A stretch of 64,000 nt of DNA, taken from contig CASDQY010000058.1 of assembly GCA_949282975.1 (NCBI GenBank), positions 5,699 through 69,698 on the forward strand, in the 5' to 3' direction. Each line of letters opens with the position of its first letter. Position 1 is the first letter of the stretch. The notes under the pieces are model-generated. The model was not told the origin of the DNA and did no database searches. It saw nothing but the letters and a program-made list of their open reading frames with translations. Origin of the DNA: an uncultured Oscillospiraceae bacterium (GTDB taxonomy: Bacteria > Bacillota > Clostridia > Oscillospirales > Ruminococcaceae). Shown here in pieces: positions 9,297 to 56,997 of this stretch. A program made the position numbers and the translations under genes.

Positions 9297-9373
9297 TGGT
9301 ACGCCCGGCTGGATTCGAACCAGTGGCCTACAGAGTCGGAGTCTGTCGCGCTATCCAACTGCGCTACGGGCGC
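9297..9373 (-). tRNA. tRNA-Arg (anticodon CCG), CCA encoded
   Basis: The reverse complement GCGCCCGTAGCGCAGTTGGATAGCGCGACAGACTCCGACTCTGTAGGCCACTGGTTCGAATCCAGCCGGGCGTACCA folds as a cloverleaf: 7-bp acceptor stem, GCGC D stem, ACAGA/TCTGT anticodon stem with loop CTCCGAC, and T loop TTCGAAT. Confidence 0.9.
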
Positions 9374-21946: not shown

Positions 21947-23551
21947 TTATTTTCGAGGGATTTTCGGATACAGGGTGATCTCAAAGCTATCGGGCTTGCC
22001 GCCGTTTTTCAGCCCCTTTTCTTTGACGTACACTACCTTTTCCAGTACGTCCTTTAGCAGATCGTTTTTTTCTTGTGGGGAGGAAAGGCCATCATATACT
22101 TCAAGCAACCGCTCCACTTTAGGGATGATGGTGTGAAAACTTTTTTCTCGTTCCTGTTCGCTTTCCAGTTCCGCTTCACGCTGCCGCAAGGCTTCCTCCG
22201 CATTTGCGATGCGCTCAGATAGGATTTTGGAGCGCTCGAAAAAGGTATCTTTGTCATAGACACCCTGCTCCAAAAAATCATAGGCATTGCTTGCCTGCTT
22301 TTTTAAGGTGTCTATATCCTTTTGTGCTTTTTCGATGGAATTTTCCAAAAAAGGAATCTGGGAGGGGAGGGAATGGCTATCTTTCCCCCAGTGCAGCTTG
22401 TACCCTTCCAGCCAATCGCTCAAAGCTGATATAACCCGCCGCTCCACCAAAGGAAGGCTGGAGCTGACGTTGTGGCAATCAGGGTTGGGGCAGCAAAGAT
22501 ACTCAAATCCGTTCTTCTGTGGCTTTCTGGCTATTTTTTTACCGCACATTCCGCAGATCAAAATGCCGGACAAAGGATTGTTGATAGCATACGGATCACC
22601 GGGCCTTGGGTGTGTGTTTTGCTTGTAAAGCTCCTGTACACGGTCCCAGGTTTCTTCTGACACCAAAGCCGGATGCAGCCCGTCGCATATCTCATACTCA
22701 CCCGGCTTTGAGCGTGGCTGATGGACCACGACTTCCCCGTTCTTCATATGCTTCACACATTTTCGCCACGCCCATCGGATTTTACCCACATAGATCGGAT
22801 TTGCAAGTATATCTCGGATTGACGGGTAAGTCCACTTCCCGCCAGTCTTTGTCTTTACACCCAAGCCGTTCAAGCGCCTTACGATTTCGCAGATCCCGAT
22901 ACGGTGGAATGCCCCAGCGCCGTCCGCCTCTCCATTTGCGTACCAGTCAAAAATCTGGCGGATCACAGCGGCCTCTTCTTCCACGGGCTCCAGAGTGTAT
23001 CCCTTATCACCCTTGATTCGAACCCGGCGGTACCCGTATGGGTCACGGCTTCCAACATACTTGCCCTCATGCACCGATGCAAGCCGTCCACGCTGCAAGC
23101 GGCGGTTGATCGTCTTATACTCACGACGGGACATAAAAAGTCCAAACTCAAAGTATTCCTCGTCGTACTCATTGTTGGGGTCATAAGTTTTCACGGGGGT
23201 GATGATTCTGGTGTCGGAAAACTTAAAAGTCTGAGCCACAATGCCCTGGTCTATCGTATCGCCCCGGGCAAGACGCTCCACTTCCATCACAAGCACACCA
23301 GCCCAAACGCCCTGCTCCACTGCCTGGAGCAGCTTTTGCATTTCCGGCCTTGCGGCGATGGATTCACCGGATACGATCTCTCGATAGATGTGAGTGACGT
23401 TCAAGCTCATCCGCTTGGCCAGCTCCATAAGCGCCTTTTCGTGGCGGGCAAGGGTTTCTCCTTCGCCCCTGGCTTCTGCCTCTGCATCGGCACGGGATTT
23501 TCGCAGGTATAGGCAGTACTGGGCGGATGGATGATAAGATTTGTTTTGCAC
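21947..23551 (-). CDS. Large serine recombinase (phage integrase)
   Basis: N-terminal resolvase domain YCLYLRKSRADAEAE...VLVMEVERLARGD (catalytic Ser in RKSR), recombinase domain, Cys-rich zinc ribbon (CGMCGKK...CCPNPDCHN) and coiled coil. 534 aa. The 3' end lies 69 nt from attL. Confidence 0.9.
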   Translation of the reverse strand: MQNKSYHPSAQYCLYLRKSRADAEAEARGEGETLARHEKALMELAKRMSLNVTHIYREIVSGESIAARPEMQKLLQAVEQGVWAGVLVMEVERLARGDTIDQGIVAQTFKFSDTRIITPVKTYDPNNEYDEEYFEFGLFMSRREYKTINRRLQRGRLASVHEGKYVGSRDPYGYRRVRIKGDKGYTLEPVEEEAAVIRQIFDWYANGEADGAGAFHRIGICEIVRRLNGLGVKTKTGGKWTYPSIRDILANPIYVGKIRWAWRKCVKHMKNGEVVVHQPRSKPGEYEICDGLHPALVSEETWDRVQELYKQNTHPRPGDPYAINNPLSGILICGMCGKKIARKPQKNGFEYLCCPNPDCHNVSSSLPLVERRVISALSDWLEGYKLHWGKDSHSLPSQIPFLENSIEKAQKDIDTLKKQASNAYDFLEQGVYDKDTFFERSKILSERIANAEEALRQREAELESEQEREKSFHTIIPKVERLLEVYDGLSSPQEKNDLLKDVLEKVVYVKEKGLKNGGKPDSFEITLYPKIPRK

Positions 23552-25223: not shown

Positions 25224-26198
25224 TTAATATCCGTTAGCCTGAGCGCCATACACGGCCTGTTCGTGGGTGAATCCTTCGTATTCCAATTGGCTGATGAGTT
25301 CGTCTCGAGAAAAAGCCATCAATTCAAGATAGCTTGCGGCGGATTTAGCGGCTTGCTCATTCCAGTTTGCACCGCAGTGATCCGCTCCGTATGTAGCTTG
25401 TGCGGTGGTAAATCCTTCATACTCTAACTGATCAACCAATCCGGTATAAGAAAAAGCCATGATACTGAGATAGTTTTGTGCCGATCTCAATGCCTGCGCA
25501 TTCCAGTCCGCCCCGCAGTGATCGGCGGCGTAAGTTGCCTCAGCGTTAGAGTATCCTTCATACTCTAACTGATCAACCAATCCGGTATAAGAAAAAGCCA
25601 TAATCGAAAGATAGCTTTGAGCAGATTCCAAGGCGTTTCGCTGTCCTGTAGAAATACCGGGCGTTGGTTCCGGTGTGGCAGGCGTTTGGGGGGCTGATGC
25701 CGGTGCAGAGGGGGTAGTGGTTTGGGGTGCTGGAGAAGGTGTTGAAGCCGTAGTTTGCTGTGTCGATGTAGTAGACCCGGAATTGAGTGATTGAGAATTA
25801 GACGAAGAATTCGATATAGCAGATTCCGTTTCATCTTGGGCCGTCCCAGAACTGCTGGTTCTGGAAATAACACGAGAATAGGAGCGACCGCTGTCACGTG
25901 TAGTAGCATTACACGCCACAATAACAACGATCAAAATTACAATCAAACATGCCGCAAGAAGTATCCAGGGCCATTTTTTGCGGGGTGGTTTTGGTTTGTT
26001 GGTATTATATTTCTCTGTGGGAGTTTGGCACACAGGGCAATTTTTCAGATTGGTTCTTTTCCCGCATTTTGGACAAATATTGTCATCGGAAACCGTTTTT
26101 TGAATACTTGCTTTATAAAGAAGCTGCCGGTTTATTTCAGTGTGACACACTGGACAGGTATTCGATAGGCACTCATGACCGCAATTTGGGCATTTCAT
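25224..26198 (-). CDS. Ltp-family (superinfection-exclusion type) protein: two zinc ribbons, TM anchor, Ser/Thr-rich linker, three Ltp repeats
   Basis: MKCPNCGHE..CPVCH and CPKCGK..CPVCQ, then a TM segment, then three ~47-aa repeats (A..SAQ.YLS.MAFS..GLVDQLEYEGF...A.Y.ADHCGA.WN.QA). Repeats 1 and 2 are also near-identical at the DNA level. Confidence 0.75.
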   Translation of the reverse strand: MKCPNCGHECLSNTCPVCHTEINRQLLYKASIQKTVSDDNICPKCGKRTNLKNCPVCQTPTEKYNTNKPKPPRKKWPWILLAACLIVILIVVIVACNATTRDSGRSYSRVISRTSSSGTAQDETESAISNSSSNSQSLNSGSTTSTQQTTASTPSPAPQTTTPSAPASAPQTPATPEPTPGISTGQRNALESAQSYLSIMAFSYTGLVDQLEYEGYSNAEATYAADHCGADWNAQALRSAQNYLSIMAFSYTGLVDQLEYEGFTTAQATYGADHCGANWNEQAAKSAASYLELMAFSRDELISQLEYEGFTHEQAVYGAQANGY

Positions 26199-26410
26199 TA
26201 TATCAGAACCTTTCAAAAAAGAGTTGTGACACAAGAATACCACATTTATCGTCATTTACCTATCGACATTTTCAACAAAAATTTCACAAAATTTTCTACA
26301 TTTAAAACAGTCCTATTTTTAGACCAGTTTTTATTTTCTGAAAATTTCTCCTTGACAAAAAAGAACATCTGTTCTACCATAGAGATCAAGAAGTCGGAAA
26401 GGGTGGTAAG

Positions 26411-26951: not shown

Positions 26952-26989
26952 CTGGTTTCACCTCCGTTCTGAGTACTATTATATAGCAA

Positions 26990-27055
26990 AAATCCCACGT
27001 TGTCAATATTTTTTCAAAAAAACGCTTGACAAATCCCACGTTGTAGTGGTATACT
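26990..27055. promoter_or_regulatory. Divergent lysogeny-switch promoters with two direct-repeat operators
   Basis: AAATCCCACGTTGT occurs at 26990-27003 and 27031-27044. Rightward promoter: TTGACA (27026-27031), 18 nt, TATACT (27050-27055). Leftward promoter: TTGACA (27006-27001), 17 nt, TATAAT. Confidence 0.65.
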
Positions 27056-34344: not shown

Positions 34345-34680
34345 ATGTTTAACGAACAAGAAAAATCCATTCTTCAAAAAGCCATTGAAACCTACGGCGT
34401 GAATGCGCAGATTGACATCGCCGTGGAAGAAATGGCAGAACTGACCAAGGCTTTGATGAAGCACAGAAGGAATGAAAAATTCAAAAAGGACGATTTTAAC
34501 GCTGCGATAAGATGTATGGCTTCGATCTGCGGTGAGATCGCCGATGTGCTGATCATGCTGGAACAGCTTCAGATGATTTTCGACAACAGGGGGCTGGTGG
34601 AAAAAATCAAAGAAGAAAAAATCCAGCGGCTGGAAAACCGCTTGCGGGAGGCACAAAATGAGCAGTCTGTCCAGCAGTAA
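34345..34680 (+). CDS. MazG-like nucleotide pyrophosphohydrolase
   Basis: All-alpha protein of 111 aa with IDIAVEEMAELTKAL and EIADVLIMLEQL metal-binding helices. Confidence 0.7.
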   Translation: MFNEQEKSILQKAIETYGVNAQIDIAVEEMAELTKALMKHRRNEKFKKDDFNAAIRCMASICGEIADVLIMLEQLQMIFDNRGLVEKIKEEKIQRLENRLREAQNEQSVQQ

Positions 34681-35185
34681 AGCCCGCTCCAACGGCGCCG
34701 CTTTTGAGCAGCTCATCAGCGCCGGATGCCGGTACTACATCAAAAAAGGAATTGCCATCATCCACAAAACCCCGGAACCAATGCACCCCATCCAGCAGAT
34801 GGGCAACGGCCGATTTCTGGCTGCCTACGATAAAAAAGCCCAGCCGGATTATCAGGGCACACTCCGTGGCGGGCGGAGTATCGTCTTTGAAGCAAAGCAT
34901 TCCGAAAACGAGATGTCGCAGGGGCGGATCACCACAGCCCAGTGGGCGGACCTGGACGGACATCAGGCCATGGGTGCGCTGTGCTATGTGCTGGTGTCCT
35001 TTGGCTTTCGGATTTTCGCCATGATCCCCTGGGAGGTGTGGAAAGACATGAAAAGCCAGGTGGGCCGGGTACATCTCAAGCCCACGGATGAGCTGGTAAG
35101 GGCATACCAGGTCAAGGCGGCCGGCGGCGGAATCCTGTTTTTGGACTACTGCTGGCTAAAAAAGGAAAATGGAGGGAAGCCATGA
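34658..35185 (+). CDS. RecU-type Holliday junction resolvase
   Basis: NGAAFEQLI...IHKTPEP...PDYQGTL..GRSIVFEAK is the RecU catalytic pattern. Confidence 0.8.
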   Translation: MSSLSSSKARSNGAAFEQLISAGCRYYIKKGIAIIHKTPEPMHPIQQMGNGRFLAAYDKKAQPDYQGTLRGGRSIVFEAKHSENEMSQGRITTAQWADLDGHQAMGALCYVLVSFGFRIFAMIPWEVWKDMKSQVGRVHLKPTDELVRAYQVKAAGGGILFLDYCWLKKENGGKP

Positions 35186-35559
35186 CCAGAAAAGAAGTGA
35201 TCAAGATGCTGAAAAAGTACAGGGAAAGCGGAGCCAAAATCGAAACGAGAGAAAAAGAACTGGAAGAGTGGGAAAGCCGGTATCGGAAAGACCTGTCCTT
35301 CAAGGTGTTAATGCCCATGAGCCTGATCATGTGTAGGATCAAAGCGGAAGTGGAACAGGCCGCCAGGGACAGGGATACCGTTTTGGAGGCGGTAAGCCTC
35401 ATAGAGGATAGCAGTATCAGACAGGTGATGGAGCAGCGATATCTGGCCGGTCAGTCTTTCGGCCGCATTGCGGAAAAAACGGGATACTGCGTGAGCTACG
35501 TATTTGAGCTGCACAGAAAAGGGCTGATCGAAATCCAGAAAAAATTCCATAGTTTTTAG
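35182..35559 (+). CDS. ArpU/RinA-like late transcription regulator (sigma region-4-like)
   Basis: ATGA overlap with recU. The C-terminal IRQVMEQRYLAGQSFGRIAEKTGYCVSYVFELHRKGL resembles a sigma-70 region 4 HTH. It occupies the last position before the packaging module. Confidence 0.65.
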   Translation: MTRKEVIKMLKKYRESGAKIETREKELEEWESRYRKDLSFKVLMPMSLIMCRIKAEVEQAARDRDTVLEAVSLIEDSSIRQVMEQRYLAGQSFGRIAEKTGYCVSYVFELHRKGLIEIQKKFHSF

Positions 35560-35562
35560 CAG

Positions 35563-35591
35563 TTTTCAAGGTAAAAATTCTGTGCTACAAT
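35563..35591 (+). promoter_or_regulatory. Candidate promoter of the noncoding island
   Basis: TTTTCA, a 17-nt spacer, then extended -10 TGcTACAAT (35583-35591), directly after the ArpU-like stop codon. Confidence 0.4.
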
Positions 35592-35596
35592 GGGGA

Positions 35597-36016
35597 CGAA
35601 GCAGCAGGGGAAGCAGCTTCGCCGCCTGCGCCGGGCGGCATGAGTGCGGCGCACTTGTGTTCTTTTTTCCTTTTTTCCTTTCCTTTGCGTGGGGGCATTC
35701 GCTCCCACAAAATGGCGGCACTGAGTAGACACACGGCTGCAAGAGTGGCTGTGCCGTGGCGGTGCGATTCCGTCTGCCGCATCCAATCAAAACCAAACAT
35801 GCAATCCCAGTGGGCGGGGCAGACACCTGCCCACATCATGATAGCAGTGGTCACCGCTTTTGTGTCGCTTGCGGTGCCGGTTCGATTCCGGCGGCTATCG
35901 CCAGTAAGGTGCCCGCTTCGGCGGCGCACCTGGTTTGAGCCACCAGACAAGCTTCGGGAGGCATACCGTCATCCATCCAGAAAAGCACCCTTCCGAACCG
36001 TGGGTGCTTTTTGTTT
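35597..36016 (+). ncRNA. Unclassified highly structured noncoding region with two tRNA-like (T-arm/acceptor/CCA) modules and a strong terminator
   Basis: No plausible ORF. Successive GC-rich hairpins. Module 1 is 35714-35785 and module 2 is 35840-35903. A UUCG-capped hairpin lies at 35907-35931. The terminator is AGCACCC...GGGTGCT followed by TTTTTGTTT (35984-36016). Confidence 0.45.
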
Positions 36017-36028
36017 AAGGGGGCAAAA

Positions 36029-36208
36029 ATGATAAAAGAAATCAACGAAAAGCCATGGTTCTGCTGCCCCAGATGCGGCAGGAAAATCCACCCGGTTTCC
36101 CCCGGCGCCTGCGGGGTGTATGTGGTCTGTAAGCAAAAACGGGCGGACGGAAGCCGGTGCAACTGGAAAGGAGAAATAAGGTGGGATAAAAATGACAATC
36201 AACTTTGA
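36029..36208 (+). CDS. Small zinc-ribbon protein (59 aa)
   Basis: ATG follows AAGGGGG. CCPRCGRK...CKQKRADGSRC gives four or more Cys in ribbon spacing. Confidence 0.5.
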   Translation: MIKEINEKPWFCCPRCGRKIHPVSPGACGVYVVCKQKRADGSRCNWKGEIRWDKNDNQL

Positions 36209-36401
36209 ATCGGAGCGTCCGAATGAACGGGAAAAACCGATTACAGCCAGGATGGATTTTCATATCTGTTTCCATTTGAAGGATGGAAAGATGCCAAGCG
36301 AAATGCTGGTAAAGCTAGAATTGGAAAAAGCATTGCTGAAAATGTTGCGAAATTTATGGACGGCGGAAATTTTGCTTGATGGAGCGCCAATACATAAATA
36401 A
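36192..36401 (+). CDS. Hypothetical protein (69 aa)
   Basis: Overlaps the preceding gene end. No family recognised. Confidence 0.4.
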   Translation: MTINFESERPNEREKPITARMDFHICFHLKDGKMPSEMLVKLELEKALLKMLRNLWTAEILLDGAPIHK

Positions 36402-36491
36402 CAAGTAAATATCGTGAGCCGATGAGCCTTTACCTTGTGGAGAAATCCGCAGGGCAAAGGCTCTTTTTGTTTTGTCAGAAAGGGGAAGAGC

Positions 36492-55732: not shown

Positions 55733-55842
55733 TTTTTGATATTGCACATCATATTCCGTACCACTTGGTAAAAATGCGTCGTAGCGGCCGGGGCTGGTAG
55801 GGCAACCGAACGTCCTGGAGACTTTAAGAAAGACCGTAAAAA

Positions 55843-56997
55843 ATGAAACGTGCAGGAAATCTTTTTGAAAAAATTTGCAGCCTAAGCAACCTGGAAACGG
55901 CGGTGCTCAACGCATCCGCCAACAAACAGAAAAGGAGGCGTGTGCGCTATGTGGTAGAGCACAAAGAGCAGGCCGCCGCCGAAATCCGGCGAATGCTGCT
56001 GGAAGGGACATTTCGACCGGGTCAGTGTCTGAGCAGGGAAATCTACGATCAATCCAGTCATAAGGTAAGGACCATAAACTGCCCGCTTTTTTGGCCGGAT
56101 CAGATCGTACATTGGGCCATCATCCAGGTGATCCGCCCGGTGCTGATGCGGGGGATGTCCCCTTTTTCCTGCGGGTCCATCCCGGGGAGGGGAATCCACT
56201 ACGGGCAAAAGTATATAAAGCGGTGGTTGGCCAGAGATCACAAAAACACAAAGTACTGCTTAAAGCTGGATGTCCGGAAATTTTATCAGAGCATCGACCA
56301 TGACCGGCTCAAAGCCATGCTCCGGCGGAAAATCAAGGATAAGCAGGTACTGGCCCTGCTGGACGCCATCATAGACAGCTATCCAACGGGGCTGCCCATC
56401 GGGTACTACACCTCCCAGTGGCTGGCTAACTTTTACTTGGAAGGGCTGGATCACTACGTCAAGGAGCAGCTTGGTATCAAGTATGCCCTGCGCTATGTGG
56501 ATGATATGGTGCTTTTCGGCACATCCAAACGCAAGCTGCACAAAGCCAGGGAGCGGATCGCCGCATACCTAAAGCCCCTTGACTTGGAACTCAAGGGGGA
56601 CTGGCAGGTTTTCCGGGTGGACAAGCGCCCGGTGGATATGCTGGGCTACCGCTTTTACCGGGATCATGTCACCCTGCGCCGCCGGAACGCCTTGAAAATC
56701 CGCAGGCGGGTGAAGCGGACGCACAAGCGGGGATACATCACCCTACATGATGCAAGGGCCATCCTAAGCAACGTGGGAATGATTACTCACAGTAATTCAA
56801 ATGAGTTTTACAAGCGGTATATTGTACCGTATGTAAATATCAAAAAACTAAAGGAGATGATCAGCCGTGCAGACAGAGAGCAACATCAAGCCGGCAGAAA
56901 TCGAGGTGGAGAAAATCCCGGGCATGGGGGTAGTGATCTGCCGGGAAAACATCACGAAAAAGGTGGGGCCGGAAGGGGATACTGTCTACTCCTATGA
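55843..56997 (+). CDS. DGR-type reverse transcriptase
   Basis: RT motifs include LPIGYYTSQWLANFYL (the DGR-typical I/LGxxxSQ) and the catalytic LRYVDDMVLFG. Confidence 0.9.
   Translation: MKRAGNLFEKICSLSNLETAVLNASANKQKRRRVRYVVEHKEQAAAEIRRMLLEGTFRPGQCLSREIYDQSSHKVRTINCPLFWPDQIVHWAIIQVIRPVLMRGMSPFSCGSIPGRGIHYGQKYIKRWLARDHKNTKYCLKLDVRKFYQSIDHDRLKAMLRRKIKDKQVLALLDAIIDSYPTGLPIGYYTSQWLANFYLEGLDHYVKEQLGIKYALRYVDDMVLFGTSKRKLHKARERIAAYLKPLDLELKGDWQVFRVDKRPVDMLGYRFYRDHVTLRRRNALKIRRRVKRTHKRGYITLHDARAILSNVGMITHSNSNEFYKRYIVPYVNIKKLKEMISRADREQHQAGRNRGGENPGHGGSDLPGKHHEKGGAGRGYCLLL

Follow-up and report, generated by a model that had tools for sequence, protein, structure and literature searches.

What occupies the GC-rich interval, devoid of any credible open reading frame (ORF), that lies between the transcriptional regulator and the packaging genes of a prophage from the chicken gut? 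The prophage, temperate and siphophage-like, is held in a stretch of 64,000 nucleotides, hereafter the window, which is a Firmicute-type chromosome segment of an uncultured Oscillospiraceae bacterium from a chicken-gut metagenome (assembly GCA_949282975.1, contig CASDQY010000058.1, positions 5,699 to 69,698); all window coordinates below count from its first letter. The interval (35563–36016, + strand) runs from a promoter-like site, through the GC-rich stretch, to a strong terminator that touches the ribosome-binding site (RBS) of the first late gene. We find that the most likely product of 35592–36016 (+) is a non-coding RNA of ~425 nt (~540 nt in most relatives), conserved and rich in structure. 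A structured RNA element with non-decoding tRNA-like modules is real here and under selection. As to its function, we see about an even chance that it is a conserved leader RNA of the late operon, which the tRNA-maturation machinery would divide into small tRNA-like RNAs and fragments ending in hairpins.

A preliminary description, made from the sequence alone, had proposed a non-coding island from promoter to terminator on the + strand, and its features are present where it placed them. With the elements added here, the interval and its borders read as follows.

35182–35559 (+): upstream gene for a 125-aa transcriptional regulator of phrog_36, linked to the RNA in all relatives
35563–35591 (+): promoter-like site, −35 TTTTCA at 35563–35568, 17 nt, extended −10 TGcTACAAT at 35583–35591
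35598–35639 (+): 5′ domain of two hairpins, GAAGCAGC/GCAGCUUC with an AGGGGAA loop, and GCCGCC/GGCGGC
35660–35688 (+): pyrimidine-rich (CU) linker, variable in length
35689–35708 (+): hairpin A, 8 bp with a tetraloop, 5 nt upstream of module 1, with compensatory and G·U changes
35714–35785 (+): tRNA-like module 1, with acceptor, connector, 9-bp arm, T arm, U73 and CCA; U at −1
35786–35809 (+): single-stranded spacer after the CCA of module 1, AUCAaAaCC...
35810–35834 (+): hairpin B, 9 bp, 5 nt upstream of module 2
35840–35903 (+): tRNA-like module 2, with acceptor, GUGGU connector, 5-bp arm, canonical T arm, G73 and CCA; U at −1
35900–35904 (+): third-unit junction, where nine relatives carry a spacer, hairpin C and module 3 (~125 nt)
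35907–35953 (+): 3′ domain, a 10-bp UUCG-capped stem with a bulged C (35907–35931) and a 6-bp stem (35932–35953)
35981–36016 (+): intrinsic terminator, 11-bp stem at 35981–36011 with an 11-nt loop, U tract to 36016
36017–36031 (+): RBS (AAGGGGG) and ATG of a 59-aa zinc-ribbon gene, beginning 1 nt past the U tract

Because hairpins A and B each stand 5 nt before a module, the repeat unit is a hairpin, 5 nt ending in U, and a module. Folding confirms both hairpins of the 5′ domain (35598–35621 and 35621–35639), the terminator folds as predicted, and the hairpins already described, including 35689–35708 and the UUCG-capped 35907–35931, form as had been stated. Hairpin B, the hairpin–5 nt–module unit, its presence in three copies in most relatives and the abutment of terminator and RBS were missing from that earlier list. 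A simple terminator scan had passed over 35981–36016 because its loop is 11 nt long. The + strand of 35592–36016 folds better than shuffled sequences (z = −3.1), whereas the − strand does no better than its shuffles (z = −0.46).

Both modules resemble the top half of a tRNA. Folded alone, each has a minimum-free-energy structure that consists of an acceptor, one hairpin and a T arm around a three-way junction, with a free 3′ NCCA. In module 1, the acceptor has a G1·A72 mismatch followed by 6 bp and then an 11-nt connector; its T arm is GGCGG-UGCGAUU-CCGUC, with G55 in the window and U55 in relative L094. The acceptor of module 2 has 6 bp and an A·G mismatch, and its T arm, GCCGG-UUCGAUU-CCGGC, is canonical, followed by G73 (A in L094). 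Module 2 alone combines the canonical UUCGAUU loop with a GG in the connector, the partners that meet at the elbow of tRNA; modules 1 and 3 carry G55. All modules share U at −1, a 7+5 acceptor/T stack and NCCA, and both U(−1) and CCA are retained in every module in 11/11 sequences. An encoded CCA is also found in a tRNA-Arg gene of the host.

The acceptor stem, discriminator and 3′ CCA of tRNA (RF00005) are thus all present in modules 1 and 2, as is a T arm with a 5-bp stem and a 7-nt U54-U55-C56-R57-A58 loop, G55 replacing U55 in module 1. No D arm was found in either; a single-stranded connector of 5–11 nt takes its place, and the D arm is deleted in the Rfam alignment. An anticodon arm (5-bp stem, 7-nt loop with U33) was likewise not found in module 1 (9 bp and a tetraloop) or in module 2 (5 bp and a 13-nt loop). 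The modules are therefore unable to decode, and 'D-arm-less tRNA mimics', one of the labels first suggested for them, is a fair structural description. The single hairpin that replaces the D and anticodon arms in each module had also been recognized, but its dimensions needed revision: in module 1 a 9-bp stem with an AAGA/AAAA tetraloop is more likely than 6 bp with a 10-nt loop, and in module 2 the arm has 5 bp and an invariant 13-nt loop, for which an alternative fold exists. Variants in metagenomes fit these folds (35738 U to C, U·G to C-G; 35853 A to G, A-U to G·U; 35877 C to U, C-G to U·G).

Such closures are very rare by chance. A strict scan of both strands of the window required four things together: a T stem of 5 bp closing a T[TG]CRA loop, 7 nt of acceptor strand directly next to it, a 5′ partner for that strand 50–100 nt upstream, and NCCA. 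It returned two sites only, modules 1 and 2. The chance expectation is 0.02 per 64 kb (300 simulated sequences), and no closure arose in 20,000 simulations with the composition of the region itself.

Existing detectors do not recognize the modules. With default settings, ARAGORN called a single gene in the window, the host tRNA-Arg (9297–9373), and neither module; the -ps setting and the mitochondrial, D-armless -mt setting made no call on the modules, and intron mode gave no credible gene in the region. The relaxed tRNA search that the preliminary description had proposed as a check (-ps80) returned cloverleaves, but these were forced ones with mismatched acceptors, none of them a credible gene. 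Against Rfam 15 the region had no match at gathering thresholds, in agreement with the earlier failure to assign a family by eye; at E ≤ 10 the best hit paired module 2 with the tRNA-Sec model at E = 0.28, well below threshold (19.9 bits, where 47 are required), in an alignment from which the D and anticodon arms are both deleted, and the remaining hits were fragments of T arms. The original view of two tandem, non-canonical tRNA-like modules accepted by no tRNA finder or Rfam model is thus upheld. Canonical tRNA and the modules have in common the 7-nt acceptor strands, the 5-bp T stem with G53-C61, the U54..C56-R57-A58 loop, the discriminator, the encoded CCA and the U at −1, and related phages have true tRNAs at the equivalent locus; the modules differ in lacking a D arm and a 5-bp/7-nt anticodon arm with U33, in the G55 of modules 1 and 3, and in being missed by ARAGORN and the Rfam tRNA model.

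Two other classes of structured RNA can be set aside. The tRNA-like domain of tmRNA also combines an acceptor and T arm with a single-stranded analogue of the D loop, one helix leaving the junction and NCCA. The modules, however, have no G3·U70 (position 3-70 is C-G in module 1 and U-A in module 2), tag reading frame or pseudoknots, and their helix is a short capped hairpin. A tmRNA search (ARAGORN -m -ps) found none, and the Rfam tmRNA model aligns to the 17-nt T arm only (11.8 bits). It had also been suggested that the island is part of a larger ornate RNA such as ROOL or GOLLD, a proposal that finds no Rfam support even at E ≤ 10 in the window or its relatives: the ROOL, GOLLD, YrlA and C4 models matched neither the window region at E ≤ 10 nor four relatives and analogous loci at E ≤ 1. 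GOLLD and ROOL are large structured prophage RNAs, often found beside tRNAs (PMC5737381). Our RNA, also structured and in a prophage, is smaller, repeats simple units where they have multistem junctions and pseudoknots, and has no covariance-model match. It is neither ROOL/GOLLD nor tmRNA.

Nor is the RNA a protein gene. Long frames are open on both strands, among them a 130-aa ORF on the + strand (35640–36032), and public pipelines have called minus-strand products of 128–218 aa in relatives. Neither the + strand ORF nor the minus-strand ORFs have a Pfam or PHROG match, indels among relatives are mostly not multiples of three, and the open frame changes from relative to relative (L085 has none above 111 codons); the supposed homologous proteins align over just 30–53% of the query where frames shift. 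We therefore give a coding function next to no credence, and the minus-strand calls are almost certainly spurious. These domainless 'proteins' (P0007–P0013) lie over the RNA at L081 3385–3909 (−), L083 2068–2565 (−), L087 3001–3531 and elsewhere, so that the RNA is also a matter of annotation, public pipelines placing spurious products opposite it.

Two lines of search retrieved relatives of the RNA from the gut assemblies of ENA and Logan: one followed homologues of the regulator, the other queried the protein database with the products of the spurious minus-strand ORF. The same RNA is present on 10 further distinct gut-metagenome contigs, in each after RecU and the regulator, giving 11 distinct sequences with the window (alignment A4). 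In addition, a search with a five-regulator profile yielded a single distant match, on a 572-nt contig. Other databases were less productive: BLASTN of the region found no match among INPHARED phages and one 42-nt match in PLSDB (86% identity, E = 8e-3); exact and degenerate pattern scans of IMG/VR and JGI metagenomes found no match; the sole match to a pattern scan of GTDB genomes was a chance one within a coding region of a Spirochaete metagenome-assembled genome (MAG); and no relatives of the regulator were found in IMG/VR.

Among these relatives the RNA is conserved above its neighbouring genes. Identity to the window is 97–98% in module 2, 95–98% in the terminator, 90–94% in the 3′ domain (where the changes are all G-C to G·U) and about 85% in hairpin A and module 1, against 69–80% in the regulator gene; module 2 is the most conserved element of the neighbourhood. 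TGCTACAAT of the promoter-like site is unchanged across the 11 aligned sequences, and the 5′ domain is swapped for a different sequence in relative L091. The RBS of the first late gene starts 1–3 nt past the U tract in the window and in every relative that reaches that far, and the genes 3′ of the terminator vary (the zinc-ribbon gene, a 50-aa gene and a methylase, or HNH directly).

The pairing is conserved with the sequence. On A4 the modular structure comprises 118 pairs in 18 helices, with 97.6% of 1226 cells paired, a figure that falls to 40–52% when partners are slid by 1–3 columns. Changes on both sides occur at 9 pairs, against 3.8 in shuffles (0/500 reach 9). The compensatory pairs are located in hairpin A, hairpin B, and the middle hairpin and T stem of module 3; in L094, hairpin B has changed on both sides at two pairs, U-A to C-G and G-C to A-U. 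The preliminary description had called for a comparison with related phages, and in this one the RNA is conserved, with compensatory changes. One-sided changes turn G-C or A-U into G·U in every case, and the cells include 97 G·U against 13 A·C. Read as the + strand, 97.6% of cells are paired, and as the − strand 90.7%; for variable pairs the values are 93.9% and 80.9%.

This asymmetry bears on whether the interval acts as DNA, as a cos/pac recognition region or as an att recombination site derived from a tRNA gene. It does lie upstream of the HNH–TerS–TerL packaging genes, and att cores are commonly the 3′ halves of tRNAs. The G·U asymmetry between strands and the folding z-scores nevertheless indicate a + strand RNA; both acceptor strands are present, which is more than a 3′ half; the integrase is a large serine recombinase 12 kb away; and three genes stand between the element and HNH/TerS in the window. 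On these grounds we rejected an att or cos site and regard any DNA-level role as highly improbable.

The pattern of conservation also decides against decaying tRNA pseudogenes, that is, drifting remnants of a phage tRNA cluster from which the D and anticodon arms have gone. No tRNA detector accepts the modules, and related IMG/VR phages hold genuine tRNA-Trp, -Met, -Thr and -Lys genes in the equivalent region, an observation that speaks for such remnants and equally suggests that the modules derive from tRNA cassettes. Drift is excluded by conservation: the RNA, most of all its module 2, outranks everything else in the neighbourhood and stands far above the adjacent regulator gene. In addition, helices are kept by compensatory and G·U-only changes, U(−1) and CCA are retained in all copies, and the hairpin and module unit is regularly repeated. 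The earlier idea of relics of tRNA 3′ halves fares no better, since the 5′ acceptor strands are retained. Pseudogene decay is thus a very improbable account of the locus, and in our judgement the RNA is not a decayed pseudogene.

The unit is also modular among relatives. Nine of them have a third unit, composed of a spacer starting AUCACAUC, hairpin C, 5 nt ending in U, and module 3, which is inserted exactly between the discriminator of module 2 and its CCA, so that CCA bounds the indel on both sides (window 35900–35904 compared with L081 3716–3840, where gain or loss falls exactly at the CCA boundary). The spacer start AUCACAUC found after module 1 recurs after module 2 in the three-unit relatives. 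Because the spacers after modules 1 and 2 both begin in this way, the sequences suggest that units may have been duplicated or deleted through recombination at module ends. The middle hairpin of module 3 has four quite different sequences (CCUGG/CCAGG; GCAGGG/CCCUGC; CCAGGGG/CCCCUGG; CCGGGG/CCCUGG), paired in all; its acceptor shows changes from G-C to G·U, and the T arm (UGCAAYU loop), U73 and CCA are retained.

How might the phage use such an RNA? In the processed-leader model, to which we give about even weight, transcription would start at the promoter right after the small regulator gene, whose product is sigma-region-4-like, and would stop at the strong intrinsic terminator, which borders directly on the RBS of the first late gene. 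The RNA would be the leader of the late (packaging and structural) operon of the prophage, its body made up of repeated hairpin/5 nt/'top-half' module units, two here and three in most relatives. RNase P would cut at the 5′ end of each module, the 3′ ends would be trimmed or retained at CCA, and stable tRNA-like RNAs of 64–72 nt and hairpin-protected spacer fragments would be freed from the leader. Cleavage by RNase P is predicted because the modules keep a 12-bp acceptor/T stack, U(−1) and a 3′ NCCA; RNase P, the CCA-adding enzyme and other 'top-half' binders would read these retained features, namely the coaxial 12-bp acceptor/T helix, the T loop, U(−1) and NCCA. The sequences show the structure, its strand, its modularity and its conservation relative to the genes around it; we infer from them transcription from the 35563–35591 promoter, RNase P and CCA processing, and any role of released modules in trans. 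The products may act in trans, as decoys or sponges, or the cuts may do no more than shape the leader.

RNase P is known to process RNAs other than tRNAs, phage regulatory RNAs among them (PMC4919922). In plant mitochondria, non-canonical t-elements, proposed or shown to direct cleavage by RNase P and RNase Z beside mRNAs, are released as stable RNAs (PMC1920247). t-elements are recognized by a non-canonical tRNA-like fold and a conserved T arm (GGTTCRANYCC), within longer transcripts beside mRNAs (PMC1920247), and the modules have a fold, a T arm and a predicted transcript setting of this kind. They differ in belonging to another domain of life, with no shared ancestry, and in being tandem, preceded by hairpins, provided with an encoded CCA and placed in a late leader; processing here is a prediction. 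The tRNA-like/pre-miRNA transcripts of murine gammaherpesvirus 68 (MHV68) and mascRNA are further non-aminoacylated handles for tRNA-processing enzymes. There too, a single transcript holds tRNA-like parts interspersed with hairpins, and CCA is either added to the tRNA-like parts or already present; those RNAs, however, are eukaryotic, driven by pol III and keep the cloverleaf, and their hairpins enter the miRNA pathway, which bacteria lack. In this company the island belongs among the known tRNA-like processing or mimic elements.

Several observations weigh against the processed-leader model or against the evidence on which it stands. Four chicken-gut metatranscriptome runs contain the region, in contigs that are unstranded and with the whole phage at similar depth, which would fit transcription and its absence alike. 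A hairpin just 5 nt upstream might hinder RNase P, not help it. One metagenome contig has CCG in place of CCA after module 2. The A4 sequences are closely related, with a mean column identity of 80%, and the shuffle control takes no account of phylogeny. RNAalifold favours some alternative or long-range pairings, and in the middle arm of module 2, for which a competing fold exists, one A-U pair is A·C in 4/11 sequences. Finally, modules 1 and 2 show no variation on A4 in their acceptor and T stems. Covariation therefore backs the flanking hairpins and module 3, not modules 1 and 2; for the invariant stems the support comes from conservation, thermodynamics and the analogy with module 3.

The position of the terminator raises a second possibility. 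Transcription arriving rightward from the early operon and transcription from the 35563–35591 promoter would both meet the 35981–36016 terminator; since a separate promoter would not fit between this terminator and the first late gene, late expression would have to read through it. Because the terminator abuts the RBS of that gene, the island is also expected to be an obligatory leader of the late operon. The leader might then act purely in cis, never being processed, with its fold acting on the polymerase or the terminator to set read-through. Known parallels are the PR′–6S RNA–tR′ unit of lambda under Q control and the put RNA of HK022. In lambda, a late-regulator gene is followed by a promoter, an untranslated RNA of a few hundred nucleotides and a terminator that is read through for the late genes, and the layout here is that of a lambdoid late control unit: a regulator gene, a promoter, an untranslated RNA of 420–540 nt, and a strong terminator directly upstream of the first late gene, whose RBS lies 1–3 nt past the U tract. 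The 90–98% conservation of 3′ domain and terminator, and the linkage of regulator and RNA in all relatives, would also suit a leader acting in cis. However, the lambda 6S RNA has no tRNA-like modules, the regulator here resembles sigma region 4 and no known Q protein, and antitermination at this locus is hypothetical. The late operon has no excess of + strand terminators of the kind that processive antitermination would require; a unit number of two or three and the hypervariable hairpin of module 3 fit cassettes better; and the T-loop consensus, NCCA and U(−1) play no part in known antitermination RNAs. We consider a purely cis-acting leader possible but unlikely.

A third possibility, already raised in the preliminary description, is that the modules are anti-defence decoys: non-decoding minihelices of acceptor, T arm and CCA that, late in infection, soak up toxins and enzymes directed at the acceptor end or the elbow, for example CCA-modifying nucleotidyltransferase or pyrophosphokinase toxins of the host or of a prophage. 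The modules keep the top half and the CCA end and have dropped the decoding parts; by position they would be co-transcribed with the late genes; and module 3 changes fast within a constant architecture while unit number shifts, as in an arms race. Toxins directed at the acceptor end do exist (PMC7450476). Yet we identified no defence or toxin partner and found no paper on a phage decoy RNA of this kind, and module 2, the best conserved, is nearly invariant instead of diversifying. Decoys are in our view a rather improbable explanation. An antisense role can be compared with the C4 RNA of phages P1 and P7, a regulatory RNA that is matured by RNase P from a longer operon transcript (PMC4919922, citing Hartmann et al. 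1995). The island RNA differs in having neither an Rfam C4 match nor a convincing complementary target for the module 2 loop in the window: the complement of the loop has three matches there at ≤2 mismatches, with 1.7 expected by chance, so that the idea of an antisense target is unsupported.

It is conceivable, if speculative, that the processed-leader model extends to a new class of phage-made, non-decoding 'top-half' tRNA mimics that are excised from the late leader by host enzymes and act in trans; we think this improbable. If true, the released modules might serve, for example, as sponges for abortive-infection toxins or enzymes that act at the acceptor/CCA end or elbow, when capsid proteins appear, and the number of units and the fast-changing module 3 would follow the repertoire of the host.

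Codon supply and escape from anticodon nucleases are the usual reasons given for phage tRNA genes. In this phage, strong purifying selection maintains the half of tRNA that is seen by processing and end-modifying enzymes, and the decoding half has been discarded. If the modules are processed or bound as predicted, phages would use tRNA mimicry for RNA processing or for manipulation of the host, as is documented in plant mitochondria and herpesviruses and hardly in phages. The locus may also be a convenient example of late genes controlled through terminator read-through in gut phages of Firmicute type. We found no published description of this RNA architecture, which matches no described RNA family; a large survey had noted, in IMG/VR phages, numerous candidate RNAs of a 'tRNA or tRNA-like' kind that are uncharacterised (PMC10690425).

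An RNA of comparable design exists in other gut phages. The late side of the prophage includes a gene for a 286-aa protein (phrog_21498), which 80 IMG/VR gut phages share; at least 22 of these carry a different RNA of ~450 nt (alignment A5; L013–L058 and others, for example L017 3090–3515), with no Rfam family match and with its own TGnTAAAAT promoter and terminator. The acceptor and T stems of its internal tRNA-like domain covary strongly (13 covarying pairs), its tail is ACCG, not CCA, and its terminator loop resembles that of the window (CGAACCGUGGG). Searching the noncoding regions of the 80 phages with the window RNA (nhmmer) gave homology limited to the T arms. The two RNAs are analogous and possibly related. 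Should the trans-acting mimics described above prove real, analogous tRNA-like domains in more than 20 IMG/VR gut phages would make them a widespread, undescribed phage RNA strategy.

After the A5 RNA come a second tRNA-like module, tRNA-Trp and a tRNA with an insertion of 65–85 nt. The second module (L017 3527–3590, at the same position in other A5 loci) stands between the terminator, which it closely follows, and tRNA-Trp; one of its hairpins is like a D arm, the middle one is unusual, its T stem is weak, and it has GUAGACAC..GGCUG in common with module 1 of the window. The tRNAs with insertions (L017 3798–3947, L013 3428–3579, L024 304–439, L009 313–448 and L002 327–463) score 44–46 bits on the Rfam tRNA model and are missed by ARAGORN unless introns are allowed, when the call becomes tRNA-Gly(gcc), interrupted at position 32/33 by 70 nt; they may alternatively be read as having a CAUUUAA anticodon loop and a giant variable region. 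At L017 3957–3990, three direct repeats of AGCUUGA, which may be a binding site for a regulator, immediately precede the terminator-like hairpin and RBS of the 286-aa gene.

Within the window, the early rightward operon of the prophage terminates in RecU (34658–35185) and the 125-aa regulator. The late side continues with genes for the 59-aa zinc-ribbon protein, a 69-aa protein, the 286-aa protein, HNH, TerS and TerL; the RNA sits between the regulator and zinc-ribbon genes, and its G+C content is 59%, against 47–48% in the flanking genes. The regulator had been taken for an ArpU-like protein, an identity that could not be demonstrated: it matches phrog_36 (E = 3.6e-10) and, weakly, sigma-70/ECF region 4 models. 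Contigs of two runs (metatranscriptome and DNA) have 30 unrelated letters in place of 36177–36412, which covers the 69-aa gene and is a mosaic junction among relatives. The lysogeny region contains the large serine recombinase (21947–23551) and an Ltp-type surface lipoprotein (25224–26255; superinfection exclusion), and back-to-back consensus promoters are found at 26978–27055 (TTGACA-17-TATAAT on the − strand and TTGACA-18-TATACT on the + strand). The tail-fibre gene (1044 aa) is closely followed by an RT-18 RNA motif (54.9 bits in Rfam), immediately 5′ of a reverse-transcriptase gene (RVT_1, 55843–56997; the pair spans 55759–56997), and together they look like a diversity-generating retroelement of the tail module.

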